DNA from: a virus
Lineage: Duplodnaviria; Caudoviricetes
Virus record (IMG/VR): IMGVR_UViG_3300046011_002458
Coordinates: 1 to 57,879 of that record
Reading direction: 5' to 3' (one strand)
Length of the DNA: 57,879 bases
Shown: piece by piece, positions 4,833-50,646 of the stretch
Position numbering within the stretch: position 1 is the stretch's first letter
Layout: each line of letters opens with the position of its first letter
Notes under the pieces: generated by a model
The model's database searches: none
What the model was told of the DNA's origin: nothing
The model's input: the letters and a program-made list of their open reading frames with translations, nothing else
Program-made: the position numbers and the translations under genes

Positions 4833-5416
4833 GCACAGCAATCGTGACATTCGAGGACGCCGGCGACGAGGTCAAGATCAGCATGAACTTCGGCCCCGAG
4901 GGTGGCCAGGAGACCAGCGGCGCGCACCAGATGGCCGTCTCTGCTGTGCATGGCCTGCACAAGGAGCACGTCTCCAACTACCACCGCACGGCGGCCTGGC
5001 TGAAGGCCTGCGGCAAGGAGCCCAACCCCGAGGACCTCATGGTTCAGATCGGCTGCCACATCGAGGAGGTGTGCGAGTTCCTCGAGGTGCTGCGCACTGA
5101 CAAGGACGGCTACGCCAAGCTGCTTGATCGCACGCGCACCGACCTCGAGTGGTTCGCATCGAAGCTCAAGCGCCGGGAGCTCACGGTGTACATCCCACCA
5201 CACCTTCGTGAAGACGCCCTGGACGCCCTGTGCGACGCCGAGGTGACCGGCAACGGTGTGGCCTACATGGCCGGGCTGAACAAGCCCTCAGCCGACCAGG
5301 CTGTGCTGAACAGCAACGATGCCAAGCTAGTGGATGGCAAGCCCGTCATCCTCGAGGGCGGCAAGATCGGCAAGCCCGAGGGCTGGAAGCCACCGGACCT
5401 GCGATCGTTCGTCTAA
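4829..5416 (+). CDS. MazG-like/PRA-PH-like nucleoside triphosphate pyrophosphohydrolase
   Basis: EEVCEF..DALCD..V..SN..K..DGKP....GKI.KPEGW..PDL. Confidence 0.8.
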   Translation: MSTAIVTFEDAGDEVKISMNFGPEGGQETSGAHQMAVSAVHGLHKEHVSNYHRTAAWLKACGKEPNPEDLMVQIGCHIEEVCEFLEVLRTDKDGYAKLLDRTRTDLEWFASKLKRRELTVYIPPHLREDALDALCDAEVTGNGVAYMAGLNKPSADQAVLNSNDAKLVDGKPVILEGGKIGKPEGWKPPDLRSFV

Positions 5417-5443
5417 AAGAAGGGGGCCTCGGCCCCCTTTCTT
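5417..5443. terminator. bidirectional intrinsic terminator
   Basis: AAGAAGGGGGCC-TC-GGCCCCCTTTCTT between convergent genes. Confidence 0.85.
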
Positions 5444-8400
5444 ATTTCGGCACCACTCGCAAGTACTCGCGGTTCATGTCGGTCGAGAGCTTGTCACGCT
5501 CCACCTGAAGCTGCTTGCGCTGCAGCTTCTTCTCCGCGTCGGTCATGTCCTTGTCTTTGATGATCTCGATCTCGCGCTTGCGGATCATCGTCGACTGCTT
5601 CTGGTAGATCTCCTGCATCCCAGCCAGACGCATCAGGCGCTCTTCCTTGTCCTTGAGCTCAGGGTCTAGGCCCAGCTTCTGCTGCGCCTTCACCTCGTCG
5701 GACAGGGCCTTGACCTCACGCATGCGATCGCCGGCGGCCTTGATGTTGGCCCCCTCGTCGACTTCGCCGTAGAACTTGTTCAAGAACGGGATCTTGTTGG
5801 CCTTCAGGTCATTGCCGTCACCAGTCATCGCCACGACCGCCGTGCCAACCTGCTCGACGAAGGTGCCCAGGCCGCCCGTGGTGGCGCTGATCAGGGTCTG
5901 GATGGTGCCAGGTGCCACCGAGGTCTCCACGCCCATGATCTCGCCAGCTTTGGCCTCGTTGCCACCGCCCAGCTCGTTCAGTGCCTTGGCGATCTTGGCC
6001 GACACGGAGTCCTGCTGGCTGGTGAACATGCGCTCAGAGTCTGGGCGCTTATCGAACGGCGACTTCTGCGGAGACGATGGGGTGCCGAAGGTGCCGCGCT
6101 CAGTGATGATCTGGACCGGCAGGTCCACCAGGGTGGGCATGGCCGCCAATAGCACCTGGACGCCATCAGAAACGTCCACAGCGCCACCAAACGGGTTGAT
6201 TGAGCCCAGGACAGTGGACGTCATGTGCAAGGCCGCCTTGGTGGGTGTCATGCCACGCTTGGGGTCTTTCGCGTTGCGCAGGACGTCGGCCATCACGTAG
6301 CCCGCGTTGGGGAACATATTGAAGCCGTACTGCACAGGGATCGTCACGTAACGGCCGCGCTTGCCCACGCGATCGATGCCGCCTGCCAGGGCGTCGCCCG
6401 GTGGCAGCATGATCACGATGTTGCGCTCCTTCACGTAGCTCGGGATCTTGTCCCAGTAGGCTTCGCCGTCGTCGTCTTCGCCGCCGGCCGAGGCACCGTA
6501 CAGCGCCAGCATCATGCCGACACCAGTCACGCCGGCCATGGACGCCTGCACCGCTGGGCTCTTGAGCACCTTGAAGAGCTGGGCATTGCCCTGCACTGCG
6601 GCGTTGAAGAACAGGTACAGGTTGTTCAGTGCGCCGCCCCACTCGCCCTTGCGGTTGAAGTTGGTGGTGCCGTCCTTGGCCAGGATCGCAGCCTTTGCTG
6701 GGCTGTTGCCTTGCTCGCGCGAGGCTTGGTACAGCGCAAACCGGGTGGCGTTCTCTGAGGCCGAGCCCATGAACTCGAGCACGCGCAACGTGAGCTTGGC
6801 CAGCTTGAACGGGGGCAGCGACTTGACCGCTTCCCACGGGTTGCGTGCGGCCGCGCCAGCGAGCAGCAGCTCGTTGCGCAGGTCCTGGTTGATGTCGTCC
6901 AGCGAGCGCATGAAGAAGCCACCCGTGATGCCGCCGGCAGAGCGGAACTCTGCGAAGCGGGCATCCATCTGCGGGTTGCCAAACAATTTGTTGCTGGTGC
7001 CGGACACGCCGGCCTCTCGCCGGGCCGAGGCCATGAAGGCCTTGGGGTAGGAGGCCAGGTAGGTGGCCAACCCCTTGGGGCCAAGCTCAGCCAAAGCCGA
7101 GGCAGTGCCGGACCACAGCGCATCGCGAGGGATGTTGATCGCAGCGAATGCCGGGTTGTACTTTGTGAGCACAGCCCGCATCCAGTTGTTCCACCAGCCA
7201 GTCATGGCCAGGGTGGCGCGCTCGAGGCCGCTGGTCTCGTCCTTCCAGGCTTGGCGCAGTGCGCGTGTCAGCTCTTTGTCAGCGAACTTGATGTAGACCT
7301 GCTGGCCGCCCACCTTCACGCCGATCGTGTCCTCGCCCTTCTCAATGGACTTGGTGTACTGCACGGTGCCCTGGGCCTTGTTGAAGGCAGGCTTGCTGCG
7401 CTCGACATCCACACCCCACAGGTCTGGGTCTGGGTTCGACAGCACAAAGTCCAGCAGGACCTTGGCCACGTCATTCTTTTCGACGCGGCCAATCACGCGC
7501 TCGTAGTCGCGGATCACGTTTTCGATCAGGTCGCCGGCCTTGGACTTGCGGCCCATGGCGCGAACCGTCTCAGCACCGCGCACGTTGACGCCACGGCCAA
7601 CGCCTGGGCGTGCGACACCGGTATCGGCGTCGACGTTCTCGAAGCCACGCAGTGGGATGTAGTTGTCGTAAGCACCCTCGAGCGCCGTGAACTCGTCCGG
7701 CGTGATCAGGCCTTCGCTGAGCATGACCTGGCGCGTGGCCGAGGTGATGCCCATCAGGGCCTGGTGCAACTCCTCGAACTTCGCGGTGTCGCCGGCCAGG
7801 TCAACCATCTGCAAGATGTTGTCGGCCTCGTCGTTGGTCATGCCAGAGCCACCGTCAGGCATGCGCTTGTTGATGCTGGCGATGTAGGCGTTGCGCTCTT
7901 TGGCGTGCTTGGCGTAGCTGTACATGGACAGCTCGTCCATGTCGATGCCGTACTCAGCCGCCTTGTCGAGCATCGGCTTGACGATGTCGTTCTTGAAGTC
8001 GTCGATCGCTGCCTGGATGCGGCCAGGCATCAGGGTGTTGGCGTCGTAGAAGTTTTGCGCTTCGCCGACTGTGCCGCCCTTGGCCTTGACGGCCTCGATC
8101 ACGCGCTTCATGCGAAGCGCGTCGTCCTGCAGTTTGATGCGTGCGGCGTCGACGTTGCTGGTGGCGTCGACGTCGAAGTTGGAGCCGATCAGTTTTTGGC
8201 GGCGGTTGCTTCGGACTACGGCGTTTCCTTCTTCGACAGATCCGCCCCGCCCTTGAAGGCCTCCTCGACCCCCTTGCACATCTTCTTGAACTCGAGGTCC
8301 AGCTTCAGCTCTTCCTCCTTGGTCAGCGTAACCTTTGATGGTCGAGCGGTAGACTTGCTCGCTGATTCTTCCGGCCTTGAACTCTTGTTCGGTCGCATCT

Positions 8401-11400
8401 TGTAACCTCTCTTTCAATCCTGATTTTATCACGCTTGTGATATTTGCAAGCGGCACGATTTGAGCGTTGCCCGCCCCCTTTGAGTTGTCGATTGCAAACA
8501 GTCGGAAGCGGGGGTTGTCGCCAAACTCGTCCTGCAATTTGCGCACAGCCTCGCTTGAGCCTGCGTGGCCCTTGGTCAGGGCGTCGATGGTGACGGTCCG
8601 GCCCTTGCTCATCGCGCGGGTCAGCACGCCATTGCGCAGCGCTTCGACCGGCTCGCGGTAGATGTAGGCGATCAGCACGCGGTTGCCAGAATCGAGCGCC
8701 ATCTGCACGTTGCGGCGGGCCTTGTCGTAGCTCGAGAGCGTGCCATCCAAAATGGTGTGCGCCTTGTCCAGCTTTGACTTCAGCAATTCCTGTGCGCTCG
8801 ACTTGCCTGCGCCGCCACCGCCGGCCATGAATGCCACGGTGCCCTGCGGCTGGGTCTCGAGTCGAGACTCGAACATGCGCTGGGTCATGTCGCTTGCGGC
8901 CTCATGCACCTCGGGTGCGCGGCTGCGGTTCTGACGGTACTCGGGCGACAGCTCGCGCACCAGGTCGGTATCGAGCAAGCGGCCACCGTCGGAGCCCTTG
9001 AGGCCCGAGTACTCGGCCAAGGCACCGTCGAAGTCCTCGTCGATGCGAGCCTGCAGCGCAGCACCGATGCTGCGATTGCTGCGGCGGATGTCGGGATTGG
9101 TTGCGTCGAACGCGCCTTGAGCATGCTTTGGATTCAGGAGCAGTGCGCCCTCGTCGCCAAGGTCGGCCAGGATCAGCCAGCCGTCGACGGAATACTTCTT
9201 GATGTCCGAGCGATCGCCGTACTCCATGGCCTGCTCTACGGTGCGCGTCACCCAGATCGCGTCGGATGCCGGGATTGAAGCAAGGTCAACGCTCAGCTTG
9301 CCGGCGGATTCGCTGGCCAGCTCGCCGATGTCTTTATTGCCCAGTTCCTCGCTTTCGTACCGAACCACATCGGCCACCGTTGCATTTTTTGGTGGGTTGT
9401 AGTTCAGGGCTCGATAGCCATCACCGCGCCATGTGCGGTCTGTGCTTCTGCGGATGTCTGGGCGGTTGCTTGCCATGACGCGGCCAAACTGGAACGACGA
9501 GCCTGCATCGGCCAGTGCCTGGTCCGCGACTTCGGCCTCGCTTGCTTTGACGCGGGCCTCGCCAAACTCAAGACGGAACGATGGGGCCACCTCGGCCAGC
9601 GCTGGGCGGGCCTTGATGATGCTGACCATCTCGTTGCCCTCGGGCCGGCGCACCAGCTCGTCGCCTGCAGTGCGCGTGCGGTTGACGGCGACTGCGCGCT
9701 CGATCTTGCGCGGCACGATCGTCTGGCTAGAGGTTGTGCCTTGGTACTTGACCGGGACGTCGGAGTTGAGAACGACGGCCGTGCCTTGCTCGCGGTTGAC
9801 GTAACCACGGAAGCCGGCATCCAGGATGGCCGACTCGAACTCGTTGGGGGTTGCGGGGAAGGTGCGAGACCCGGCTGCCGGGTCGTACAGGTTGCTCAGG
9901 TCTGCGTTGTAGACGTGGCCACCGAGACCGAGCTCAGGCTGGGGGATGCCGCCGGCGACAGGCAGGTAGAAGTAGACGCGGCGCTTGATGCGGGCGTCAA
10001 CGCTTGGCTGGGCCAGGCGTGATTGCTCAGCGCCCTTGATGCCCGAACCGAAGCTGACGCCAGACAGGACACTCAGTCCCCCTTGCTTTCCGTAGTGGAC
10101 TGCCCCTGCAACCTTGATTGCATCGCCTTGATCGCCCCCAGCGCTGGATCTTCCGGCAGGTTCTGCAGGTCGGGCAGCGCGGTTGCTGAATTGGATTTTT
10201 CCTGCGTCGCCCCAGTCGTACCGCTCGCTGAAGTCGTCGAAGACTCGCTGGACCCGGGGCGCGAGATAAGCTCTGGCCCAGTCAAGAACATCGGATCTTC
10301 CTTCGGCACTGGCCCTCGCAACGTAATCTTGCCCATTTTGATTTTCCTTCCAATTGTTGGTCATCATGTCGCCGCTGGACGCAAACCACTGCGCGTCAGC
10401 ATCCGGCAACACAGATTCAGCCACACGCAGAATGTCCGCGTGCAGCTTTTCATTTGTGATGATACCAAAATTCACAAGCCTTATACCGCTTGGGGAGCTG
10501 ATAAAGGCGAATTGATCCTGCCAGCCCTCATGGCCATTGTCAGCCATCCACTGGCCGACAGCCGCCTCGAGGTCCGCCACTTCGCGGGGGTTGAGTGGGC
10601 GGCCAACCTTGATGTCCAGGCCATTGGCGTCGCGCTTCGTGCTTGAGTAGAACGGGCGGTGCCAGCCCACGCCCTCTTGGCGGGCCACCAGGCCAGCCAC
10701 GGCAGCGTAGACGTTGAGCGCCTTGGCCTGGGCGGGGTCGACGTTGGTCTTGCCGGCATCGCCCTTTGCTGGGGCCATGGCCACACCGAGCTGCGTGCTT
10801 GGCGAGATCTCGCCTTGCCACACGCCGGGGGCCAGGATGTCGTTGTCGACAAGCAAGCCCAACCGCATGGCCAACAGGTCATTGCCCTGCTCATCAAGGA
10901 ATGCCCGCTGCACAGCCTGCTGGAACTCCACCTGCTGCGCATAAGGCGCGTCGTGGATGCCGGGCAGAACACCCGTTGTGCGGCCAGGGCGAGCCTCAAA
11001 GGAGACCTGCCCGATGTGGCGCTTGAGGCCATCGCCAAAGTCGAACTTGGCCTGCTGTGTGTCGTCCTTTGTGACGTCGTGCGCGAAGGAATACTTGAGC
11101 CAGTTGTCGCGGTGCTTTTGCTTGTCGATGATGACCCGTTCCTTGCCCTTGCCGCCCTTGCCCGGCACGAACTTGATCCAGCCCTTCTTTTCGCTGGTGC
11201 GCTCGGTTTCTTTCTTAACGCCCTTGTTCTCCATGCGGGCCTTCATGGCCACCCAGATCGCGGCCTGCACCTGCTGCGGCTCCCAGCCCAGCTCTTGCGC
11301 CAAGCGGTTGGTCTCGTTCTCCATGAAAGAGTACTGCGTCGCAGTGGGCGCATCGGTCTCGTACTGACCGGCGCGCATCATCCACATGTCGATCGTCGCG

Positions 11401-14400
11401 CCCTGCTTGCCGGCGGTCGATGGGTCGATCTCGCGCAGCAGGTTGAAGAAGAAGTTGCCGGTCTTCTCGCCGGACCAGAATGCGTCGACGTCGTCGAGTG
11501 CGTTCTTGGCTTTTTTGTCCATGTCGCCGGTCTTCACGCTGATCGGCTGGCCAGCCTTGTACTGAGCCCACGCACGCAGCGCGAACGTGGAGTTGGCGTC
11601 GACCTTGGCTTGTGGCGAATAGATGGCCAGCAAGGCCACGAACTTGCGCGCTTCGTTGACGTCGCCACCCACCATCTTCAGCACTTCGCGGCTGCTGTTC
11701 TCGTACCAGTAGCGGCCTGGCGCACCCTCGTCCGCGAGCTGGCGCAGGATCTTGCGCAAGGTCGGGATCTTGCCGGGCGTGTTGAACTTCTCAGGCGCAC
11801 CCAGGTACTTGCCGTCTTTCATCGGCAGCTTCTCGGTGACCTGGCCGCCGCGACTGTAGGCGATGTTGCGACCCTCGAGCGCGGCGCGCACACGAGGCGC
11901 TGCGGCGTTGGTGAACACCACGCCTTCCTTGGTGACGCGGCCCACTGTGCCCTCGGGCATGGCCGCGCGGATGGCGTCGCTGTCGCCGAACACGGTGAGC
12001 GATCCATCTTTGGCGGTGGCCACCTCGTAGTCGCCGAACTTCTCGGTCTTCGCGCGGCGGGCCATCATCACGTCGCCAGTCACAGCGGCGTCGGGCGTCA
12101 GGCCCTGCTCCTGCATGGCCTCGGCGTAGGCAGTGGTCAACAGGTCTCGAGCCTTGGCCACGTCTGTGATGTACGTGTTGACGAACTCGTCGCCGTACTC
12201 GCTGCGAGCACCAGTCAGGATTTGGTTGAGCTTGGACAGGATGGCCTTGGCCACCTCGGCAAACTCGGCGTTGCCCATCTTTGCGCGCAACTCTTCCCAG
12301 AAGTCGGCTCGCTTGCTGATCGCCTGAACCATGAATGCGGGGATCTCTTCGTCGAGCTGAGCGTCGGTGTAGTCGAACACCTGCTTGAACTCGTTCGTCT
12401 TGTCCTCACGGAACAACTGGCGCAGTGCCGTGTTGAGGGTCGCACGCTTGTCGTCTGACAGGCCGTGGTAGGCCTCGTGCATCGTGACGAACAAAGGCGC
12501 GTCAACGGTGTCGTCGGCGATCATGATGTGCTTGCCGCCAGCTCGATTGATCAGGCCATTGGGCATCGACATCTCGGGACCGGACACGCGCGTGATCACA
12601 GTCAACGTCTTGCCAAGCAAGCGGGCAACAGTGCTGGCCAGCTTCTGGCCGTCGTTCATTTGACTGACCGACACTGGCGCAACGTCGAGGCCTGTCTCGG
12701 CCTGCAGCGCAGCGCGCACCGACTTGATTGCCCCAATCGGCGCGGGCAGCGCCAGCTTCAGTCCGGCAGGGACAGCACCTTGCACATTGGTCGGTGCTGC
12801 TGTGCCGACGGCTGCGGTTGCTCCGGCTGCTGGTGCTTCTTGTCCTTGCGCTTGGCCTTGGATGGCTTGAGGGGCTTGAGTGCCACTGACGTTCTCCTGA
12901 GTTTCGGAATAACCGGCCAAGCGGAACTTGCCGTTGGCCATCGACTCGACCTTCCAGCCGAGATCCGGGAACATGCGCTGACGACCTGGCAGCGCCTGCT
13001 GTGCATCGCCTTGCGTCACGTAGCCGTCGCCCTTGCGGCCGAACCACTGCTCGGCCGGCTGGACTACAGCATTGTTATTTTCTTGGCTCGCGATCGAGGC
13101 CTCGGTGCGTGCCAGCAGATCCTGATCAGTGGCCCGATCGAACGGGCGATTCAGGCCGGCAGTCGGTTGCCCGGCTGCGCCTGGAACAGAGACAGCCTGT
13201 GGAACATTGGTCCCAGCAAGTCCGGCAACTCCACCTCGCTGCCCGGTGGCGTCATTGACATCAAGTCCTGGAATGTCCAGGCCTCCGCCACGCTGATCGC
13301 TTGCGAGCTCACCGCTTCCTGCAGCTGCCAATGGAGGAATGCTTGTTGCGCTGACATCGGTTGTCTCCGGTGCGGTTGGAACGACAATGTCCACCAGGCC
13401 AGCCTGCTGTGTGGGCGAACCTGCTGGGGTGAAATTGATGGGTGCGGCTGGGCCGGTGTCGCCTTGCTGACGCGACGTCAGGCGCGGGTCGATCAGTGTG
13501 GGGTCGTAGTTGTTGACGTCGAAGAGCGCCACAGCTTGGCGCTCTGCTGCGATGCCAGGCGTCTGCGCTGCGCGGGCCTCTTGGAACTGGCTTGCAGCTC
13601 CGGCAGCACTGAATGGGGCTGAGGTTACGAGCGCCGTGGCCATGGCCTCGGGCACACCCTCTGTCAGCTTTTGGTTGGGGTCGACCGTGCGCGAGATGAC
13701 GTTGCCGCCAAACTGCGTGCCGCCCTCCTCGAACTGCTCGCCGACCAGGTCCTTGGCCAGCATCTTTCCAGCGCCGGCAAACGTCAGAGCTTCGGCTGTG
13801 GCCTTTCCCAGGCCCCTGGAGGCGATAGCGGCCTCGGCACCCATAAACCCCAGCAGACCCAGCGGCGCGGTGATCAGCGCGGCCATACGGGCCTTCGTGG
13901 TGGCAATCTCTTCGATCGCGTCCTTGCTGGACTTGCCTTCGGCGGTCAGCTTCTGGTAGTCGGGGTTCTGTTGCCACACGCTCAGCGGCGTTTGCTTCGG
14001 GTCGGTCAGTTTTTCGTACACGCCACCGGCTGCGTCGCCGCCAGCCATGACCATGGACGCACCCACACCGCCGGCGGTCGTGCCCGCGACGCGCGCGCCT
14101 GCCTGGATGGCTCCGCCGCTGATCGCTTCAGCCAACGCCACAGTGGGGCTGGCACGGCCAGCCAGGCCAACGGAGCCAGCGGTCGCTGCGCCAACAAAGC
14201 GGGAGGCTCCCACGACACCCAGGAAGTTGGGCACCTGCTTCACGGCCTCAGACAGGCCAAGCGCTGGGCTGGTGACAAGCTGCACAACGGTGGCGGCGTA
14301 CTTGTCGAGGAACCCGTCTTCGTTCAGCACGCGCTCGCGCAGCTGTTCGCGCTGAGCCTTCAGCACGCCGGACTCTTGAGCCTGCAATTCCTTCTGTGTG

Positions 14401-15083
14401 GCGCTCAGCGATGCCGCGATGTCGCTGCTTGGGGCGATGATGTTGATCGGCAGCTGCACCAGGCCAACCGCGCCTTGGCTCAGGTTGGACAGTGTGTCGG
14501 CCGCCCACTCGCCGGCGCTGCGGAACTCCTCGGCCTTGGCATCGCGAGCTGCGCGGATGTTCTCTGGCTTTTTGGCCGCATCGGCCAGGTCGGCAAAGCT
14601 CTTGTCGCCCCGGGCGTCCATGGCCTTGACGACCTTGTTGACCGTCGGGTCCTTGCTGACCATCTGGCCACGGCTGCTGCGCACCGAGTCGGCTGCAGAT
14701 TGCGCCTGCGAACTGATCGGGCCTGCGCCGTAGGACAGGCGTCGATCGATGTCGGCCTGCTTTTCCTCGGCCGTGGGGACGTAGTCCTCCATGACGCTCT
14801 TGAACTTAGGCCGCAGGGACTCGCCCACGCGCTGAATGATGCCGGGCTGAGGTGGTGCCTTGTAGCGCGCGGCCAGTCGGGCGGTCTCGTCGCCGGTGTC
14901 GATCACTGGCGCGGCCGCCGGGGCCGGAGCCTCGCCGCCGGACAGGAAGCCGATCACCTCCGATGCGCTGTAGCCAGACTGCAACGCCCCGCTCAGATCA
15001 AATTTATTCTCTGTGGCCAGGTAATCCGCGATCTCTTCGTCGGAATACCCGGAGCTGCGGGCTGCGTTGATGTCGAACTTCAT
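5442..15083 (-). CDS. 3213-aa large polyvalent internal virion/ejection protein (zincin, HhH-glycosylase-like, two ART-like, zeta-toxin-like kinase, LPD38-like C-terminus)
   Basis: HEAYH..EE; YWYE..SPQ..KT.NF..TIDMWMMR..QAAIW; HYG..YFY; YR..WVT..A..YG; MAGGGGAGKS..DGT; LYLFFNAAVQG..YWDKIPSYVKERN; last gene of virion operon. Confidence 0.9.
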   Translation of the reverse strand: MKFDINAARSSGYSDEEIADYLATENKFDLSGALQSGYSASEVIGFLSGGEAPAPAAAPVIDTGDETARLAARYKAPPQPGIIQRVGESLRPKFKSVMEDYVPTAEEKQADIDRRLSYGAGPISSQAQSAADSVRSSRGQMVSKDPTVNKVVKAMDARGDKSFADLADAAKKPENIRAARDAKAEEFRSAGEWAADTLSNLSQGAVGLVQLPINIIAPSSDIAASLSATQKELQAQESGVLKAQREQLRERVLNEDGFLDKYAATVVQLVTSPALGLSEAVKQVPNFLGVVGASRFVGAATAGSVGLAGRASPTVALAEAISGGAIQAGARVAGTTAGGVGASMVMAGGDAAGGVYEKLTDPKQTPLSVWQQNPDYQKLTAEGKSSKDAIEEIATTKARMAALITAPLGLLGFMGAEAAIASRGLGKATAEALTFAGAGKMLAKDLVGEQFEEGGTQFGGNVISRTVDPNQKLTEGVPEAMATALVTSAPFSAAGAASQFQEARAAQTPGIAAERQAVALFDVNNYDPTLIDPRLTSRQQGDTGPAAPINFTPAGSPTQQAGLVDIVVPTAPETTDVSATSIPPLAAAGSGELASDQRGGGLDIPGLDVNDATGQRGGVAGLAGTNVPQAVSVPGAAGQPTAGLNRPFDRATDQDLLARTEASIASQENNNAVVQPAEQWFGRKGDGYVTQGDAQQALPGRQRMFPDLGWKVESMANGKFRLAGYSETQENVSGTQAPQAIQGQAQGQEAPAAGATAAVGTAAPTNVQGAVPAGLKLALPAPIGAIKSVRAALQAETGLDVAPVSVSQMNDGQKLASTVARLLGKTLTVITRVSGPEMSMPNGLINRAGGKHIMIADDTVDAPLFVTMHEAYHGLSDDKRATLNTALRQLFREDKTNEFKQVFDYTDAQLDEEIPAFMVQAISKRADFWEELRAKMGNAEFAEVAKAILSKLNQILTGARSEYGDEFVNTYITDVAKARDLLTTAYAEAMQEQGLTPDAAVTGDVMMARRAKTEKFGDYEVATAKDGSLTVFGDSDAIRAAMPEGTVGRVTKEGVVFTNAAAPRVRAALEGRNIAYSRGGQVTEKLPMKDGKYLGAPEKFNTPGKIPTLRKILRQLADEGAPGRYWYENSSREVLKMVGGDVNEARKFVALLAIYSPQAKVDANSTFALRAWAQYKAGQPISVKTGDMDKKAKNALDDVDAFWSGEKTGNFFFNLLREIDPSTAGKQGATIDMWMMRAGQYETDAPTATQYSFMENETNRLAQELGWEPQQVQAAIWVAMKARMENKGVKKETERTSEKKGWIKFVPGKGGKGKERVIIDKQKHRDNWLKYSFAHDVTKDDTQQAKFDFGDGLKRHIGQVSFEARPGRTTGVLPGIHDAPYAQQVEFQQAVQRAFLDEQGNDLLAMRLGLLVDNDILAPGVWQGEISPSTQLGVAMAPAKGDAGKTNVDPAQAKALNVYAAVAGLVARQEGVGWHRPFYSSTKRDANGLDIKVGRPLNPREVADLEAAVGQWMADNGHEGWQDQFAFISSPSGIRLVNFGIITNEKLHADILRVAESVLPDADAQWFASSGDMMTNNWKENQNGQDYVARASAEGRSDVLDWARAYLAPRVQRVFDDFSERYDWGDAGKIQFSNRAARPAEPAGRSSAGGDQGDAIKVAGAVHYGKQGGLSVLSGVSFGSGIKGAEQSRLAQPSVDARIKRRVYFYLPVAGGIPQPELGLGGHVYNADLSNLYDPAAGSRTFPATPNEFESAILDAGFRGYVNREQGTAVVLNSDVPVKYQGTTSSQTIVPRKIERAVAVNRTRTAGDELVRRPEGNEMVSIIKARPALAEVAPSFRLEFGEARVKASEAEVADQALADAGSSFQFGRVMASNRPDIRRSTDRTWRGDGYRALNYNPPKNATVADVVRYESEELGNKDIGELASESAGKLSVDLASIPASDAIWVTRTVEQAMEYGDRSDIKKYSVDGWLILADLGDEGALLLNPKHAQGAFDATNPDIRRSNRSIGAALQARIDEDFDGALAEYSGLKGSDGGRLLDTDLVRELSPEYRQNRSRAPEVHEAASDMTQRMFESRLETQPQGTVAFMAGGGGAGKSSAQELLKSKLDKAHTILDGTLSSYDKARRNVQMALDSGNRVLIAYIYREPVEALRNGVLTRAMSKGRTVTIDALTKGHAGSSEAVRKLQDEFGDNPRFRLFAIDNSKGAGNAQIVPLANITSVIKSGLKERLQDATEQEFKAGRISEQVYRSTIKGYADQGGRAEAGPRVQEDVQGGRGGLQGRGGSVEEGNAVVRSNRRQKLIGSNFDVDATSNVDAARIKLQDDALRMKRVIEAVKAKGGTVGEAQNFYDANTLMPGRIQAAIDDFKNDIVKPMLDKAAEYGIDMDELSMYSYAKHAKERNAYIASINKRMPDGGSGMTNDEADNILQMVDLAGDTAKFEELHQALMGITSATRQVMLSEGLITPDEFTALEGAYDNYIPLRGFENVDADTGVARPGVGRGVNVRGAETVRAMGRKSKAGDLIENVIRDYERVIGRVEKNDVAKVLLDFVLSNPDPDLWGVDVERSKPAFNKAQGTVQYTKSIEKGEDTIGVKVGGQQVYIKFADKELTRALRQAWKDETSGLERATLAMTGWWNNWMRAVLTKYNPAFAAINIPRDALWSGTASALAELGPKGLATYLASYPKAFMASARREAGVSGTSNKLFGNPQMDARFAEFRSAGGITGGFFMRSLDDINQDLRNELLLAGAAARNPWEAVKSLPPFKLAKLTLRVLEFMGSASENATRFALYQASREQGNSPAKAAILAKDGTTNFNRKGEWGGALNNLYLFFNAAVQGNAQLFKVLKSPAVQASMAGVTGVGMMLALYGASAGGEDDDGEAYWDKIPSYVKERNIVIMLPPGDALAGGIDRVGKRGRYVTIPVQYGFNMFPNAGYVMADVLRNAKDPKRGMTPTKAALHMTSTVLGSINPFGGAVDVSDGVQVLLAAMPTLVDLPVQIITERGTFGTPSSPQKSPFDKRPDSERMFTSQQDSVSAKIAKALNELGGGNEAKAGEIMGVETSVAPGTIQTLISATTGGLGTFVEQVGTAVVAMTGDGNDLKANKIPFLNKFYGEVDEGANIKAAGDRMREVKALSDEVKAQQKLGLDPELKDKEERLMRLAGMQEIYQKQSTMIRKREIEIIKDKDMTDAEKKLQRKQLQVERDKLSTDMNREYLRVVPK
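8216..8398 (-). CDS. nested 60-aa ORF (+1 frame) directly after the zeta-like kinase domain
   Basis: GAGGT-6 nt-ATG; GC3-rich codons in nested frame; internal operator/-10 upstream. Confidence 0.7.
   Translation of the reverse strand: MRPNKSSRPEESASKSTARPSKVTLTKEEELKLDLEFKKMCKGVEEAFKGGADLSKKETP
8423..8449 (-). promoter_or_regulatory. intragenic operator palindrome TATCACGCTTGTGATA (8427-8442) with extended -10 TGaTAAAAT
   Basis: 14/16 match to the perfect palindrome at 51125; TTGCAA 15 nt upstream of the -10. Confidence 0.65.
10073..10336 (-). CDS. nested 87-aa ORF (+1 frame), MGKITLRGPVPKEDPMF...
   Basis: GAAGGA-8 nt-ATG in an AT-rich patch; motif-like sites at 10451-10485. Confidence 0.6.
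   Translation of the reverse strand: MGKITLRGPVPKEDPMFLTGPELISRPGSSESSTTSASGTTGATQEKSNSATALPDLQNLPEDPALGAIKAMQSRLQGQSTTESKGD
12758..12886 (-). CDS. nested 42-aa basic ORF (+1 frame), MALKPLKPSKAKRKDKKH...
   Basis: AGGAG-7 nt-GTG; GC3-rich codons in nested frame. Confidence 0.55.
   Translation of the reverse strand: MALKPLKPSKAKRKDKKHQQPEQPQPSAQQHRPMCKVLSLPD
13151..13357 (-). CDS. nested 68-aa ORF (+1 frame), MSAQQAFLHWQLQEAVSSQAISVAEAW...
   Basis: GGAG-7 nt-ATG; globular-looking sequence; GC3-rich codons. Confidence 0.65.
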   Translation of the reverse strand: MSAQQAFLHWQLQEAVSSQAISVAEAWTFQDLMSMTPPGSEVELPDLLGPMFHRLSLFQAQPGNRLPA

Positions 15084-15117
15084 GGGAATAGAGCGTCACG
15101 AAGGTTAAAAGAGACCG

Positions 15118-16035
15118 TCAGCGGTTGAAGCTGCTGAGCGGTGGGCGAGTGCCAGCATTATCGCCGGTCCTGGGTGCGGGCGTGCCGCCTGTCAAACGCT
15201 CAATTGCTTTCTGGCGTTTTTCTGCTTCCGGCAACTTGCCAAACGCGTAGTCGTTCTTGCTCATGGTGCTGACCAGGCTGGCCACCTGCTTGTCGAAGTC
15301 CATGCCACGGCCCAGGACCTTGGTTGAACCATCGGACATGACGGCGACCTTGTTGCCTTGGTCGTCGGTGTACGTGCTGCGCACCTTCGAGCTGCCACCA
15401 GCACCACCACTGCCGCCAGCCGGCTTGTTTGCGCGGATCGTGTCGGTCTTGTTCTGCGAAGTGATGCGCTCTTCCATCAGGTCCAGGCGGCGGTCCTGCT
15501 GCTCGCCGCGCTTGCGGTCGATTGCATCCTTGTCGGCGCGAGCCTCTGCGTCGACCGTTGCCTTGTAGGACTCGCGGCCTTCTTTGATCGCAGAGCTCGA
15601 GCCACCCAAGCGGCGGATCTCGTTGAGCACGTCTTCCTTCTGCTTGCTGTAGCGCTCAACGTAGCGGTCAGCCCCCTCGAAGTTGCCGACCTTTTTCTGG
15701 TTGTAACTCTCGTTAAAAATGTTGCGCAGCTCTTCTTCGGAGGCGTCGGTTTGCCCGACGTCCGCCTTGAACTTGTCGAAGCGGCGCTGGTCACCAATGG
15801 CCGGCGCGTTTTGCTCGGCCTGCGAGTAGATGTCCGCGTCCTTACGCAGCTTGGCCTCCTCGCGGTCGAGCTTGAGCTGATCCAGCGCCTCCTGGCGCTT
15901 GAGCAGCCGCTCTTCGCGCAAGACCTCGCGCTCGTCTTGGCGATCCATCTCGTACTGGCGCATGCCCGCCTGAGCGAACGTCTGCCCAGCGTCTGCAATG
16001 CCCTTGCCGATACCGGCCAGAATCAGTCCGCTCAT
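15118..16035 (-). CDS. probable internal virion/ejection protein
   Basis: Coiled-coil, Gly-rich N-terminus; position before the giant gene. Confidence 0.7.
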   Translation of the reverse strand: MSGLILAGIGKGIADAGQTFAQAGMRQYEMDRQDEREVLREERLLKRQEALDQLKLDREEAKLRKDADIYSQAEQNAPAIGDQRRFDKFKADVGQTDASEEELRNIFNESYNQKKVGNFEGADRYVERYSKQKEDVLNEIRRLGGSSSAIKEGRESYKATVDAEARADKDAIDRKRGEQQDRRLDLMEERITSQNKTDTIRANKPAGGSGGAGGSSKVRSTYTDDQGNKVAVMSDGSTKVLGRGMDFDKQVASLVSTMSKNDYAFGKLPEAEKRQKAIERLTGGTPAPRTGDNAGTRPPLSSFNR

Positions 16036-46546: not shown

Positions 46547-46891
46547 ATGACGAAGAATTTCGAGAAGCTCTCAATCGGCGATAGGCTTCGGTACTTGATC
46601 GAAGTACGCAAATACACGCAGGTTGAATTGGCAAAGAAAATTGGAGTAACCCAGGCTGCGATCAGCAACCTGGTGACGGACTCATCGAGAAAGCCAAGCG
46701 CCCCGACGCTGCTGAAACTGGCGGCCGCACTACAGGCAAATCCTGATTGGATCATGACCGGTGCAGGCGAGCCGTTCGAGATGAACATTGTGGGCAAGCG
46801 ATCCGAGCGCGAGCTGCTCGAGGCCTATCGCAACATGGACCCGCAGGCCCAGGCCGCCCTGATCGCTGCTGCAAAGGCCATGACAAAATAA
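46547..46891 (+). CDS. cI: CI-like XRE HTH repressor without S24 peptidase domain
   Basis: IGDRLR...TQVELAKKIGVTQAAISNL...LAAAL..NPDWIMTG.G; 114 aa. Confidence 0.85.
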   Translation: MTKNFEKLSIGDRLRYLIEVRKYTQVELAKKIGVTQAAISNLVTDSSRKPSAPTLLKLAAALQANPDWIMTGAGEPFEMNIVGKRSERELLEAYRNMDPQAQAALIAAAKAMTK

Positions 46892-46918: not shown

Positions 46919-46949
46919 TTGACGGTCGACTTCACAATTGTGATATAGT
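46919..46949 (+). promoter_or_regulatory. early promoter/operator CTTCACAATTGTGATA
   Basis: Palindrome 46930-46945 overlapping TGaTATAGT. Confidence 0.8.
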
Positions 46950-47014
46950 CGAGGCGTCGGTTGATTGAAACCGACCCGGCCCAGAGGTTCTGGGACACGT
47001 CAGGAGACCAGATC

Positions 47015-47233
47015 ATGAGAAACATCACCACCATATCCGACAACGTGTTTGACCGGTTCATCAAGCCCATGGATTACGTTTCAAACGGAACTGACGTTGG
47101 TCGCTACTTTGGAACGACGGACAGGGGGACTCGCGTTGTGGCTTGGGGAGACAAGCGCGACGATCACGAGACCGCCGTTAAGCTTATTGCATACCTGCAA
47201 AGGCACTCAGCACAAAAAAAAATCGAGGCTTGA
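47015..47233 (+). CDS. early hypothetical protein
   Basis: CAGGAG SD. Confidence 0.65.
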   Translation: MRNITTISDNVFDRFIKPMDYVSNGTDVGRYFGTTDRGTRVVAWGDKRDDHETAVKLIAYLQRHSAQKKIEA

Positions 47234-47264
47234 TCCGAACTATCACATTGATTTAGGAATCATC

Positions 47265-47471
47265 ATGCGAGCACAAAACCAATACCAAGTCACCATCCAG
47301 CCAGGCGGCTCGTGGCCAGCGTTTGAGACCACCGTCTTGGCGGCCACGCAGTACCGCGCTGAGTTGGCTGCCGTCCAGCAATACCGCGCCGACTATGCCG
47401 CCTCGGGCTGCATGGCACCAAGCATCACAAGCATCCAATGCGAAGAGTTGAACACTACTTCACAATTGTGA
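47265..47471 (+). CDS. early hypothetical protein
   Basis: TAGGA SD; stop lies in operator. Confidence 0.6.
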   Translation: MRAQNQYQVTIQPGGSWPAFETTVLAATQYRAELAAVQQYRADYAASGCMAPSITSIQCEELNTTSQL

Positions 47472-47477
47472 TATAAT
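47448..47477 (+). promoter_or_regulatory. early promoter/operator
   Basis: TTGAAC-18 nt-TATAAT with palindrome 47458-47473. Confidence 0.8.
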
Positions 47478-47522
47478 TCAATCACTGGCCCGGCAGATCC
47501 CGGGACGCGACAGGAGTCCAAA

Positions 47523-47711
47523 ATGCAAGTTATCGAAGTCAATCTCAAAAGCGTGTACGGCGAAATCAAGGCCTACCCGATCAACGAAGCCGCCAAGCTG
47601 TTTGCAGACCTGGCCGGCACCAAGACCCTCACCGTCCAATCCCTCAAGAAGATCCAGGCCCTTGGCTATGAGATCAAGGCCGTCGACCCGCTGGCCCTCG
47701 CTTTCGCCTAA
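47523..47711 (+). CDS. early hypothetical protein
   Basis: CAGGAG SD; K.VYG...YP....A.LFA.LAGTKTLT. Confidence 0.75.
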   Translation: MQVIEVNLKSVYGEIKAYPINEAAKLFADLAGTKTLTVQSLKKIQALGYEIKAVDPLALAFA

Positions 47712-47741
47712 TTCATCACATTGCTTATTCTGGAGAACGAC

Positions 47742-48089
47742 ATGACTACACCAACCATCAACACCCGCAAAGACTATTTCGGCAAGTGGGTTGCCACCAG
47801 CAACATCGCCCTGGCTGGCGACCGCCAGCTCAAGATCAGCACCAGCAAGGACCAGCGCGGCAACCTGACCACCTACGCCAGTGTGGCGATCGTCCGCAAC
47901 GAAGCCGGTGCCCGCATCGAGACCTTCGAGGTGTACGGCGACTACATGAAGTCCATTCGCAAGAGCCAGCCCAAGATGGTCAACGAGAAGCGCGCCCGTG
48001 AGCAGCAAGAGCTCGTGCTCGAGGAAGACCTGCAGCTCGTGCTGTGCGACGTCAAAAACTTCTACGCCGAAAAAGGCATCGAGGTCTGA
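47742..48089 (+). CDS. early hypothetical protein
   Basis: GGAGA SD. Confidence 0.75.
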   Translation: MTTPTINTRKDYFGKWVATSNIALAGDRQLKISTSKDQRGNLTTYASVAIVRNEAGARIETFEVYGDYMKSIRKSQPKMVNEKRAREQQELVLEEDLQLVLCDVKNFYAEKGIEV

Positions 48090-48117
48090 CACAGCAACAT
48101 CAAACCAGGAGATAGCC

Positions 48118-48336
48118 ATGTCGTATTACAGCAAACGCCGTTACAACCCGCCTGCAGATGTTTACGCCGCCAGCACGCTGATTGGCCGCAACACCGGCAA
48201 CTGGCAGACCCCAGTGCGCGGCACCAACGATCAGGAGTATCAGGTCTACCTGACCTGCGCCGATGACGGCAAGGGCGGCGACATCACCCGGGGCGGTGCC
48301 CCACTCAAGAGCTACGACGAGTGGCTCGCGTCTTGA
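48118..48336 (+). CDS. early hypothetical protein
   Basis: CAGGAG SD. Confidence 0.7.
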   Translation: MSYYSKRRYNPPADVYAASTLIGRNTGNWQTPVRGTNDQEYQVYLTCADDGKGGDITRGGAPLKSYDEWLAS

Positions 48337-48350
48337 ACCAGGAGATCGCC

Positions 48351-48569
48351 ATGTTCACCATCTACATCGTCGACCGTGCCAACCAACTCTCACAGCAGAC
48401 CTTTGGCCGCCAGGACGACGCAGACGCTGCCACCGACCAGTGGGAAGCCGTCGGCGGCTGCGAGGTCTACACCAACCGCCTGGCCGCAGTCCTGGCCAAA
48501 GATGACTATGACCGATTCATTCGTCGTCAGTCGCAGCGATCAGGCTTGTGCATGACTTCACAATTGTGA
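48351..48569 (+). CDS. early hypothetical protein
   Basis: CAGGAG SD; stop lies in operator. Confidence 0.65.
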   Translation: MFTIYIVDRANQLSQQTFGRQDDADAATDQWEAVGGCEVYTNRLAAVLAKDDYDRFIRRQSQRSGLCMTSQL

Positions 48570-48575
48570 TATACT
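48546..48575 (+). promoter_or_regulatory. early promoter/operator
   Basis: Palindrome 48556-48571 overlapping TGaTATACT. Confidence 0.8.
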
Positions 48576-48594
48576 GACATCAAAGGAGAACGAA

Positions 48595-48741
48595 ATGAGA
48601 GACCTGGCCCTAGCACTTGAAAGACTGAACGACTTGATCGACGGCGGATGGGAGTTCCCTGACGCCTGCGGCAAAGTGGCCCGCGAAGATGGCGTTAACT
48701 ACGACGCCCTGCGCGATGCCTATGACGAACAGTTTGCCTGA
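48595..48741 (+). CDS. 48-aa acidic early protein
   Basis: AAGGAG SD; MRDLALALERLNDLIDGGWEFPDAC... Confidence 0.7.
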   Translation: MRDLALALERLNDLIDGGWEFPDACGKVAREDGVNYDALRDAYDEQFA

Positions 48742-48769
48742 CCTATCACATTGATTTAGGAGACCCCAA

Positions 48770-49048
48770 ATGAACAACTTGAACCCCGTCTTCGCCCTGG
48801 CCCTTGCACCCTTTGCGCCACCCGTCGAGATCGACATCAAGTGGCTTGCCTTCTGCGAGAGCGAGCTGCGCAACGCCCGCCGTCAGTACGACAGCAAGCC
48901 TGACTGGAACGCAGACAAGCAGACCTGGGCCGCTGAGATCGTCAAGCTCGAGCGCGACATCGAAGAGCTGAAGGCCGGCGTGGCACGCGACGACCTGACC
49001 AGCGTGAAGAACTGGAACATGCCCGCCTGGGGCTACAGCGGCACCTGA
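48770..49048 (+). CDS. early hypothetical protein
   Basis: AGGAG SD. Confidence 0.7.
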   Translation: MNNLNPVFALALAPFAPPVEIDIKWLAFCESELRNARRQYDSKPDWNADKQTWAAEIVKLERDIEELKAGVARDDLTSVKNWNMPAWGYSGT

Positions 49049-49075
49049 AATATCACAATGCCATAGGAGAACGAC

Positions 49076-49324
49076 ATGAGCCGATTCAACAGCCCTGCAG
49101 AGGTCCTGGCCGCCGCCGAGAAGTGGGCCGCTCAGCTTTACCGCAACAACCTCGAGAAGGGCCACGCCCTCAACCCTTACTGTACCCCGGGAGCCATCGC
49201 CGAGTTCGACCATGGGTTCAACGGTGACCCGCGCCGCTCGTGGGACATCCCGGTCGAGTGGGACTTCCGCTATCAGGCTGGTGCAGCAGTGCGCCGCCTT
49301 GTTGATCAAAAGGTGGCCGCATGA
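49076..49324 (+). CDS. early hypothetical protein
   Basis: AGGAG SD. Confidence 0.7.
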   Translation: MSRFNSPAEVLAAAEKWAAQLYRNNLEKGHALNPYCTPGAIAEFDHGFNGDPRRSWDIPVEWDFRYQAGAAVRRLVDQKVAA

Positions 49325-49446
49325 GATACGACCTGTTCGAGCTCACCACCGCCGGCATGACGCCAGCCCAGCGCGCCTGGCGCGTTGCCTTCCTGCTGGC
49401 AACCATTGCGGTGTGCTTGCTTGACCTTTTTGTTTGGAGACCATGA
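49321..49446 (+). CDS. 41-aa membrane peptide ending DLFVWRP
   Basis: AAGGT SD; ATGA overlaps. Confidence 0.6.
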   Translation: MRYDLFELTTAGMTPAQRAWRVAFLLATIAVCLLDLFVWRP

Positions 49447-49676
49447 TGACCCTGATTGCAAACCTGCGGCACGCTGCCCGCAACCGTGAGACCGTGACCA
49501 TAGGTGGCGGAGAGTTTGGACCTGCCGAGCTGCTCGAGGCTGCGCGCGTGCTCGAGCTACACAGCCAGCTGCTGGGGGCGCTGAAGGCTTCACTGGACTG
49601 GGTCCCGGCCCACCTAAATTCGCGGCGTCTTGCCGAGGCCGCCATCGCCGAGGCAGCAGGAGCCAGCCATGGGTGA
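49443..49676 (+). CDS. early hypothetical protein
   Basis: GGAGA SD. Confidence 0.6.
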   Translation: MMTLIANLRHAARNRETVTIGGGEFGPAELLEAARVLELHSQLLGALKASLDWVPAHLNSRRLAEAAIAEAAGASHG

Positions 49677-49872
49677 CATGGCCGAAGCCTTCCGTGACCT
49701 GCGCGACCACAAGAAAGCCCTACGTCAGCGCTACGGCGTGCTGTGCCCGCAGTGCCAGATCGTGCGTCCCAAGGCGCACCCCACCATCCTGATGCCGGGC
49801 CAGAAGTGCAAGGTCGACGGATACCGAGACGCGCGCCCTCATTTGACCGAAGAACAATGGAGCAACCCATGA
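49669..49872 (+). CDS. small Cys-containing protein
   Basis: AGGAG SD; MGDMAE.F; CPQC. Confidence 0.65.
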   Translation: MGDMAEAFRDLRDHKKALRQRYGVLCPQCQIVRPKAHPTILMPGQKCKVDGYRDARPHLTEEQWSNP

Positions 49873-50051
49873 ACACTCGCAAGTACCCCCGAACCATGAA
49901 CGAGGCATTCCCGAAGACCGTGGAGTACGCCTGCTCAATCGACCGCCCTGGCCGCTACGCCCTGCGAACCTGGCCACGCATCCTGGGTGCCGCGTGCCTG
50001 GTGCTGCTGGTCATGTACGGCGTCGCATGTTCATTCCCGACTAAATCATAG
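49869..50051 (+). CDS. small protein with C-terminal TM
   Basis: GGAG SD; TRKYPRTM.EAF. Confidence 0.65.
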   Translation: MNTRKYPRTMNEAFPKTVEYACSIDRPGRYALRTWPRILGAACLVLLVMYGVACSFPTKS

Positions 50052-50055
50052 GGTC

Positions 50056-50083
50056 TTGCATGACTTCACAATTGTGATATAAT
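50056..50083 (+). promoter_or_regulatory. early promoter/operator
   Basis: TTGCAT-16 nt-TATAAT with palindrome 50064-50079. Confidence 0.8.
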
Positions 50084-50150
50084 AAATTCAACGAAGCGAA
50101 ATTCGTTACCGACCTGGCGGTTCCAGGCGCTCCTAAGAAGGACACCCAAA

Positions 50151-50618: not shown

Positions 50619-50646
50619 ATATCACATTGCTATAGGAGAAACCATC

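Follow-up and report, generated by a model that had tools for sequence, protein, structure and literature searches.

How a cell that produces a phage polyvalent protein survives the self-harmful enzymes which that protein carries, and how the action of those enzymes is timed after injection, is an open question that the main text of the founding survey of polyvalent proteins (PMC5512222) does not address. We studied a locus that bears on it in the IMG/VR virus record IMGVR_UViG_3300046011_002458 (57,879 bases, G+C 61.5%; this whole stretch of DNA is called the window below). Here an open reading frame (ORF) of 3213 aa contains a kinase module of the Zeta_toxin family, and a complete 60-aa ORF is written in the +1 frame over the 3′ end of that module and the linker behind it. 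Judged by its sequence, the 60-aa ORF is a genuine conserved overprinted gene under purifying selection. Its product is predicted to bind the kinase domain, and we propose that it would be the cognate inhibitor of this injected kinase. The features concerned, with frame 0 being the frame of the giant ORF, are:

5442–15083, minus strand: polyvalent virion-protein ORF, 3213 aa, frame 0 (ORF list, Pfam)
8334–9101, minus strand: ng_zeta1-like Zeta-toxin kinase domain, aa 1995–2250 of the giant ORF (Pfam, PDB profile, AlphaFold2 (AF2), Foldseek)
8799–8822, minus strand: Walker A motif or P-loop, GGGGAGKS (read from the sequence; conserved in 20 homologues)
8405–8409, minus strand: Shine-Dalgarno (SD) sequence GAGGT, 6 nt before the ATG at 8398 (read from the sequence)
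8216–8398, minus strand: overprinted 60-aa gene in the +1 frame, stop included (62 loci, ATG conservation)
8219–8332, minus strand: functional core of the peptide, residues 23–60, where frame 0 is a low-complexity linker (G+C at third codon positions (GC3), ratio of nonsynonymous to synonymous differences (pN/pS), predicted interface)

The window encodes an integrase (1753–2838), a major head protein, a portal/adaptor, a terminase and a primase and is read as a temperate tailed phage, the DNA of which is recurrent in lake and freshwater metagenomes. The giant ORF sits in the structural gene block, with the major head protein, portal/adaptor and terminase, and has G+C fractions of 0.645, 0.459 and 0.787 at its three codon positions. 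Because Pfam finds DUF7178 (aa 1119–1282), Zeta_toxin (aa 2109–2187) and LPD38 (aa 2877–3101) in this one ORF, that is, unrelated domains including an LPD, its domain content makes the product a polyvalent virion protein by the definition of Iyer et al. 2017 (PMC5512222). The main text of that survey places zeta-toxin-like kinases in polyvalent proteins, in phages as fusions with MuF, and suggests that the cell wall is weakened by them at entry. The region 8216–9050 lies wholly inside the giant ORF.

Is the 60-aa ORF a gene? Two pattern scans with the kinase domain collected 35 IMG/VR loci and one contig of a metagenome-assembled genome, with kinase identities of 57–70% except in two remote loci (32–35%). 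A +1 ORF runs across the domain end in 36/36 of these loci and in the window. The family peptide (51–61 aa), encoded in 34 of the 36, shares one start ATG and the C-terminal pattern ...F-K-x-G-x-(D/S)-L-x-x-x-x-(T/S)-(P/R)-stop. The +1 ORFs of the two remote loci have 55 and 57 aa and a similar LSPEE/WTPE helix start, and comparison by hhalign of the peptide family with that of remote locus L042 gave E 0.019 over 28 columns, which is suggestive only. A later metagenome scan found the ORF in 25/25 loci, 7 of them identical to earlier ones. In total, a +1 ORF of 51–61 aa is present in 62/62 loci and the family peptide in 60/62, and frame 0 stays open past the nested stop in all 62, so that the ORF is fully embedded. 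In the +2 frame, the domain end of the 36 related loci and the window holds no ORF with a start codon.

The start of the nested gene is kept as well. For statistics we used 29 distinct loci, leaving out six duplicates by peptide identity (L015, L019, L024, L025, L026 and L036) and the two remote loci. The nested ATG consists of the last two bases of a frame-0 Asn or Asp codon plus a G, and that codon is AAT or GAT in 29/29 loci, whereas T is the last base in 220 of the 813 other Asn and Asp codons of these domains (27%). A purine-rich SD-like run (GAGAGG, GGAGAA or GAGGAG) stands 6–8 nt upstream of the ATG in the 29 sequences, as judged by eye without a count. The whole ORF is therefore contained in another ORF, has start signals of its own and, as described below, is under purifying selection in its own frame.

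Searches for the peptide elsewhere returned its own family. A peptide profile run against 1.84 billion proteins gave 17 matches at E up to 1e-3: 13 unnamed proteins of 30–63 aa from short metagenome contigs, which belong to the same family, two longer variants and two unrelated repeats; an in-frame fusion of kinase and peptide was not found in this set. One variant, P0012 (144 aa), lacks the usual stop and continues through 82 more residues that resemble a real domain; its genomic context was not found in viral or metagenome contigs. Searching 50,697 phage records with the 60-aa ORF by tblastn gave no match at E up to 1, and neither did Rfam on 7900–9100.

Composition and variation both change frame where the nested gene leaves the kinase domain. 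In 90-nt windows, frame-0 GC3 is 0.83–0.97 on both flanks (0.79 over the giant ORF); at 8333–8303 it drops to 0.27–0.33, and that of the +1 frame climbs to 0.93. Selection was estimated as Nei-Gojobori pN/pS over 40 close pairs (<25% nucleotide difference; the pairs are not independent). For the nested frame, frame 0 and the +2 frame, in that order, pN/pS was 0.26, 1.14 and 1.43 behind the kinase domain and 0.46, 0.50 and 2.06 in the 20 overlap codons. Column entropy at the nested second position, which is the third of frame 0, is highest within the overlap and lowest behind the domain. Contigs of four independent lake and freshwater runs contain no insertion or deletion. The long contigs carry 22 substitutions, 21 of them synonymous in frame 0, and none is listed in 8200–8461, the stretch of the nested ORF and its upstream signals (P ~0.005 if substitutions were evenly spread).

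The domain over which the gene begins was characterized in frame 0, where the minus-strand translation holds FMAGGGGAGKSS, HTILDGTLSS and AYIYREPVEALRNGVLTRAMSKGRTV. Pfam Zeta_toxin (PF06414) scores 53.6 bits on the domain alone against a cut-off of 22.3 (40.8 bits on the full protein) and matches 20/20 aligned homologues. A profile of these 20 homologues finds Neisseria gonorrhoeae ng_zeta1 in the PDB (6EPH/6EPG; chain 6eph_B) at E 5e-18 over 231 profile positions and PezT at E 0.26. The AF2 model of the domain alone has a predicted local distance difference test score (pLDDT) of 91.8; Foldseek matches it to 6eph_B at E 9.4e-14 with a template modelling (TM) score of 0.81, and to PezT, zeta and AvrRxo1 at TM ~0.4. 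In the P-loop, G94–G97, G99 and K100 are invariant in 20/20 homologues and A98 and S101 nearly so. K100, D119, R162 and R168, invariant in 20/20, align with ng_zeta1 K115, E133, R175 and R181. The domain has the family profile, the Walker A lysine, the acidic residue after strand 2, the two lid arginines and the fold, and on this sequence evidence looks like an active member of the ng_zeta1 branch. In the profile alignment, ng_zeta1 K59 corresponds to an Arg in the phage domain and N75 falls in an insertion. The Neisseria toxin ng_zeta1 phosphorylates uridine diphosphate (UDP)-sugars at the 4′-OH, prefers UDP-N-acetylmuramic acid and causes lysis, and ng_epsilon1 is a non-globular polypeptide that wraps around ng_zeta1 and neutralizes it (PMC5923241).

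These results bear on an initial annotation of 8216–9050, made from the letters alone, which had described the kinase motifs, a palindrome, an extended −10, GAGGT-ATG, the 60-aa ORF and an AT-rich patch; all of them are in place. Its assignment to the Zeta_toxin family of P-loop kinases is borne out by the profile check, the 6eph_B profile match and the fold, whereas its likeness to zeta/PezT holds at the level of the family only: the closest relative is the 4′-OH kinase ng_zeta1, and zeta and PezT, which are 3′-kinases of UDP-N-acetylglucosamine, are more distant. It had also let the kinase domain end at the AT-rich patch, which is not so, as homology and the AF2 model run through the patch (which in frame 0 encodes ...PLANITSVIKSGLKERLQDATEQEF...) and two further helices to ~8334. 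Overall, what was seen has been confirmed and how it was interpreted has been supported only in part.

Among cultured and other catalogued phages, blastn of 7700–9100 against the 50,697 phage records gave only short matches to the C-terminal module of Ralstonia phage ‘DarB-like’ genes. The sole kinase homologue in these records is MW202577.1, in which an 878-aa protein ends in the kinase domain. The final 20 nt of its kinase gene are shared with a 40-aa ORF that lacks annotation (L008 3713–3835, plus strand).

What does the peptide do? It accompanies the kinase whatever follows: a module leading to LPD38 in the window, an unrelated domain in L001, and the end of the ORF ~55 codons on in L003 and the L009 group. 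Kinase and peptide therefore behave as one module. Residues 22–57 form one amphipathic helix and a conserved tail (F-K-G-G-A-D/S-L-S/A-G-K-E-T-P), with the most conserved positions (51, 54 and 59) in the tail; residues 1–21 are simply a consequence of the overlap. Complex prediction for kinase plus peptide gave an interaction score (ipSAE) of 0.89 in 3/3 runs, and the best of three controls reached 0.12. The runs share at least 79% of contacts, with a partner pLDDT of 67–69. Of 80 solved complexes, 58 reach the calibration mark of this score, as do 2 of 110 mismatched pairs; these counts hold only roughly here, where user-supplied alignments were used. On this modelling the peptide is predicted to bind the kinase domain. 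The predicted interface is made by residues 22–57, the part under selection: F37, M40, C41, V44 and F48 line one face of the helix along β3, β1, β4 and helix 102–114, and the conserved G-G-A-D-L-S tail is predicted to reach P-loop G99, N157–G158 of the lid helix and loop 209–215. Such a predicted pose fits an inhibitor lying beside and over the nucleotide site. The reality of the gene, its linkage to the kinase module and the predicted binding were thus all obtained by computation.

The initial annotation, which named the small helical epsilon/PezA antitoxins as background, had taken the peptide for an independently transcribed antitoxin under phage control. The peptide is one helix with a tail rather than a three-helix bundle, and no similarity to epsilon/PezA or to any solved chain is detectable: a profile of 20 peptides against the PDB at E up to 10 gave only chance matches (designed TIM barrels, MsrA) and no epsilon or PezA chain.

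Can the nested gene be transcribed on its own? The following features stand in front of its ATG and in the early region of the phage:

8444–8449, minus strand: −35-like hexamer TTGCAA, 15 nt from the −10 (resemblance to the phage's own promoter at 50064)
8427–8442, no strand assigned: operator-like palindrome TATCAC-N4-GTGATA (TATCACGCTTGTGATA) (exact match; motif family)
8423–8431, minus strand: extended −10 TGATAAAAT (TG-A-TAAAAT) (resemblance to the phage's own promoters)
46547–46891, plus strand: helix-turn-helix (HTH) transcriptional regulator, a candidate binder of the palindrome (phrog_8 E 1.8e-18, phrog_4 repressor E 4e-16)
50064–50079, plus strand: palindrome-bearing promoter TTGCAT-16-TATAAT (others at 46930, 47458, 48556 and 51125)

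The palindrome reads TATCACAAGCGTGATA on the minus strand and is identical at 14 of 16 positions to the perfect copy TATCACAATTGTGATA at 51125; the initial annotation was right on this count, on the 15-nt spacing, and in taking the site for a look-alike of the phage's promoters, since it belongs to the motif family of the early promoters and recurs in relatives. With up to two mismatches, TATCAC-N4-GTGATA occurs at 12 sites (mean of 100 shuffles 0.47; none of the 100 reaches 12). The phage's own palindrome promoters on the plus strand combine TTGCAT or GTGCAT, CTTCACAATTGTGA and TATAAT or TATACT, with a 16-nt spacer at 50064; the internal copy has TTGCAA, 15 nt including TATCACAAGCGTGA, TAAAAT with TG at the extended −10 position, then GAGGT and ATG. 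Copies at 46235, 46470 and 46930 flank the HTH gene, and between −35 and extended −10 the palindrome has the form (C/T)(T/A)TCACAATTGTGATA in window 46930–51140 (plus strand) and also in G001, G002 and G005:C3. It is found elsewhere in the records of 5/5 relatives (a reversed control gave no match in four virus records), and in relative G002 the nested site is an 18-mer identical to one of that phage's AT-rich intergenic promoter sites. From these sequences, the palindrome promoters beside the HTH gene appear to be a regulon common to related phages.

The patch that carries these signals has a G+C of 0.42 (8380–8469) against 0.61 for the window. Its 15 frame-0 codons (ITSVIKSGLKERLQD) include one of the two ATA codons of the giant ORF (133 Ile), its only TTA (236 Leu) and one of its four AGG (197 Arg); the ATA falls in the extended −10, the AGG and TTA in the SD stretch. 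Nine of the 15 end in A or T against a background of 21% (P ~1e-3). In relatives, the variants TGATACAAT and TGTTATAAT change the frame-0 residue after V-I (K, Q or M) and keep TAnAAT (TAAAAT, TACAAT or TATAAT). Both the rare and A/T-ending codons and the change of residue with TAnAAT kept argue for selection at the nucleotide level. The embedded promoter is a plausible addition specific to this clade; since it is confined to one clade, independent transcription would not be a general property of the module.

Leader sequences follow several of the plus-strand promoters. A conserved leader, ...CACTGGCCC(G/A)GCAGAT(C/T)C(C/T)GGGACGC..CAGGAG, which contains an inverted repeat, stands after two promoters (~47478–47515 and 51146–51182, plus strand) and after one G002 promoter (L053), and a different common leader (GTCGGTTGATTGA..CGACCCGGC) after 46930 and one G001 promoter. 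These promoter leaders may be RNA elements.

We propose the following answer to the question raised above. The polyvalent protein is thought to be injected with the phage DNA. Relatives of its internal kinase module phosphorylate UDP-activated cell-wall sugars and cause lysis. The 60-codon gene, which covers the last 22 codons of the kinase domain and a disordered linker, would be translated from its own SD and ATG, and its product, with residues 22–57 on the β-sheet face beside the P-loop helix and reaching P-loop, lid and β4–β5 loop, would act as a non-globular immunity protein or antitoxin that keeps newly made kinase silent in the producing cell. The peptide could not pass through the tail together with the unfolded polyprotein, so that the kinase domain would be active after its injection into a new host. 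In this clade, an incoming phage would be able to produce the antidote early, from the embedded early-type extended −10 promoter with its operator palindrome, and so silence the kinase that it had itself injected; elsewhere the long late mRNA would serve for translation of the peptide. What we infer here is the inhibition, the timing and the activity of the promoter. The idea of a cognate inhibitor is supported by the closest solved relative, a proven toxin with a non-globular wrap-around antitoxin. We put the probability of this proposal as a whole (a cognate inhibitor made in cis that protects the producer, is stripped off at threading and, in this clade, is remade early to end kinase action) at roughly 55%.

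Several observations weigh against this proposal. With regard to the gene, the pN/pS contrast behind the domain is weak over all 406 pairs (0.80 vs. 1.07), owing to saturation, and a single unlisted difference falls within 8214–8364 in a 151-nt contig of low depth (X8, record 13); the gap that the X8 contigs leave at 8392–8432 was given no weight. A hydrophilic frame-0 linker without T at codon position 2 leaves the +1 frame free of stops by composition, and the openness of the ORF behind the domain is weak evidence by itself; this caveat does not touch the start codon, the selection specific to one frame or the fall of GC3 in frame 0. With regard to the partner, the peptide belongs to no known antitoxin, Pfam or PHROG family in searches of Pfam, PHROGs and the PDB, and the 40-aa ORF beside the kinase of MW202577.1 has no similarity to the peptide family by hhalign. 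The complex score may in part be the model's memory of the solved ng_epsilon1/ng_zeta1 structure, and the predicted pose fits a structural subunit as well. With regard to the promoter, the extended −10 is present in 11 of 29 distinct loci and absent from 18, the spacer between TTGCAA and −10 has 15 nt, a plain sigma-70 scan that requires 16–18 nt calls no promoter within 5000–15500, and the conserved frame-0 I-T-P/S-V-I imposes part of the palindrome. A search for RNA runs that contain 7900–9100 found none.

The alternative that survives best accepts that the peptide is real and separately translated and makes it a structural complement, an activator or a folding or packaging chaperone, the helix of which covers an open sheet face. 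The predicted interface, mostly sheet face and helix α1, suits a structural or activating subunit equally well: the contacts alternate along β3 (141, 143, 145 and 147), β1 (86–88), β4 (198–206) and helix 102–114, as in core-like packing, and the domain's own C-terminal helices (229–255) lie outside it. An activator, too, could be provided after injection from an early-type promoter. Against this, AF2 already models the isolated domain with confidence, the strongest conservation in the peptide falls on the tail, which is predicted to lie near P-loop G99, lid 157–158 and loop 209–215, the neighborhood of the nucleotide site, and the closest solved relative is neutralized rather than activated by its small non-globular partner (PMC5923241). 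On balance we regard such a role as rather unlikely.

The peptide sequence could also be reached in another way, by a programmed +1 (or −2) frameshift near 8335 that would yield a truncated polyvalent isoform ending in helix and tail, with the ATG irrelevant. The functional part does start exactly at the end of the kinase domain, and a C-terminal helix that packs on this sheet face is usual in P-loop kinases. A frameshift leaves unexplained, however, why 29/29 loci retain the ATG in spite of codon bias, preceded by an SD-like run, and why the +1 frame is open from the ATG through the 20 overlap codons in all loci when upstream it contains 1–10 stops per 230 codons. The junction shows no conserved nucleotide heptamer, and the 1.84 billion proteins include no such in-frame fusion. 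We consider this very unlikely.

Even less credence goes to there being no second gene, so that the +1 ORF, its conservation and the AT-rich patch would be side effects of frame-0 constraint, linker composition or a recombination seam. Hydrophilic linkers are indeed stop-free in +1 by composition, and other +1 ORFs in the giant gene, such as 12758–13006 and 10073–10336, look like frame-0 shadows. This would not account for a frame-0 GC3 of 0.27 where that of the genome is 0.79, for a pN/pS of 1.14 in frame 0 and 0.26 in the nested frame, or for a +1 ORF that keeps start, stop and length (51–61 aa) in 62/62 loci; moreover, the amphipathic periodicity is specific and the docking is confident and reproducible relative to controls. 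Finally, an assembly error with two compensating frameshifts, which the twofold switch of the frame signal within ~120 nt might suggest, is refuted by the same arrangement in 61 other loci and by four independent runs without inserted or missing letters, and the +1 frame ends in a stop, so that no continuous 0 > +1 > 0 reading frame exists.

If the peptide is the cognate inhibitor, which known system does it resemble? The ng_epsilon1/ng_zeta1 pair (6EPG/6EPH/6EPI; PMC5923241) provides the closest solved kinase by both sequence and fold (E 5e-18, TM 0.81), with the P-loop Lys and both Arg conserved and phage D119 aligned to E133, and its partner is a small non-globular polypeptide that lies on the kinase surface, as is predicted for the phage peptide. 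The differences are that the phage partner gene is overprinted in +1 on the 3′ end of the kinase module instead of being a separate cistron, that the peptide has no sequence similarity to any solved chain, and that the phage kinase sits as a module inside a virion protein of 3213 aa and has no C-terminal oligonucleotide/oligosaccharide-binding (OB) domain. With epsilon/zeta and PezA/PezT the phage pair shares the Pfam family Zeta_toxin and the principle that a small helical protein blocks the kinase; PezT, zeta and AvrRxo1 are nevertheless distant (TM only ~0.4; PezT profile E 0.26), and the streptococcal epsilon and PezA antitoxins are three-helix bundles that plug the ATP site in a 2:2 tetramer (PMC5923241), whereas the phage partner is a single helix with a tail. 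A classical type II toxin–antitoxin operon of the epsilon/zeta (PezAT) kind it is not, with a partner embedded in +1 that has no epsilon/PezA homology and a kinase that is an internal domain of an injected polyvalent protein rather than a free toxin.

The polyvalent proteins of the founding survey (PMC5512222) are alike in being giant multi-domain virion proteins, here with LPD38 and a zeta-toxin-like kinase; they differ in that the main text of the survey contains no embedded partner genes and no wording on overlap, immunity proteins or neutralization. Our literature search, which covered that survey in its main text only, likewise found no report of a partner gene overprinted on a gene for a zeta toxin or a polyvalent protein. 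Each ingredient is familiar: kinases of the zeta type with small antitoxins, phage genes embedded in others, and toxin–immunity cassettes. What is new is their combination, with promoter, operator, SD and second gene embedded in the linker of a polyprotein. In phage lambda, the small gene Rz1 lies complete, with an SD and ATG to itself, inside Rz in the +1 frame, and the two products cooperate; it differs in having a spanin function and no internal promoter, and its host gene is not a modular polyprotein. In polymorphic toxin/immunity cassettes, which the survey also mentions, a toxin module and the antidote gene directly behind it move as one recombination unit. In such cassettes the immunity gene is an ORF in its own right, downstream of a toxin domain that is C-terminal, whereas the phage toxin domain is internal, so that its partner gene is written over the linker in another frame.

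Is this gene alone in the giant ORF? A frame analysis over the whole ORF gave a second candidate:

13151–13357, minus strand: second overprinted +1-frame gene, 68 aa (GC3, start and stop kept in relatives, AF2)

It lies on a poorly conserved Gly/Ala-rich linker (aa ~576–644) behind the N-terminal module, with a GC3 of 0.79 in +1 against 0.44 in frame 0. The 68-aa ORF has the same length, start and stop in L001, L045, L046 and L010 at 43–75% identity (BLASTP E 1e-18 to L001). GGAG precedes its ATG by 5–7 nt in the window, L001 and L045, and GGGGA takes that place in L046. The nested frame has a pN/pS of 0.67 here, and frame 0 one of 1.31. AF2 models its product as three helices (pLDDT 79), for which there was no PHROG or Pfam family and nothing by Foldseek against the PDB at E up to 0.001. 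In the ESM Atlas, the two small proteins had best scores of 0.79 and 0.85, under the cut-off of 0.9, and these are leads only. The +1 ORFs 12758–13006 and 10073–10336 were judged probable shadows of frame-0 conservation and set aside. Relatives have further +1 ORFs with protein-like sequences and a GC3 well above that of frame 0: 146–148 aa (107 aa in L009) behind a domain that is GNAT-like by eye (L003 1952–2398, L009 59–382, L012 470–910, L016 452–898), and 63 aa with an SD (L001 6149–6340, L005 386–577, L006 776–967). From their sequences these are possible additional overprinted partner genes. Together with the second gene of the window, they raise the prospect that overprinted linker partner genes may be general in these polyvalent genes. 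A stronger version is that the polyvalent genes of this phage group are systematically dual-coding, with each injected module and the +1 partner gene on the linker behind it forming one recombination unit, and with the early operator-controlled promoter of the kinase partner able to silence the injected toxin; we offer this only tentatively and hold it to be doubtful.

A separate observation concerns the processing of the giant protein. Its frame-0 translation contains an HExxH motif (MHEAYHG) at aa ~870 (near 12470, minus strand), a region for which the general family search gave no supporting match. It may belong to a zincin-like peptidase, a type that Iyer et al. propose in the main text of their survey as a processor of polyvalent proteins (PMC5512222).

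The kinase partner is a clear and statistically well-supported case of overprinting, in which the signals for transcription and translation are drawn from the rarest codons of the host gene. Gene callers miss such genes; among 1.84 billion proteins this family appears only as 13 unnamed proteins of 30–63 aa. If it inhibits the kinase, the peptide would be a natural minimal inhibitor scaffold for UDP-sugar kinases of the ng_zeta1 type. For one module, a hidden conserved partner gene written over the linker offers a concrete and testable answer to how the producer of a self-harmful polyvalent enzyme survives and how that enzyme is timed after injection, and it hints at a general design rule in which module and antidote would form one recombination unit within a single ORF.

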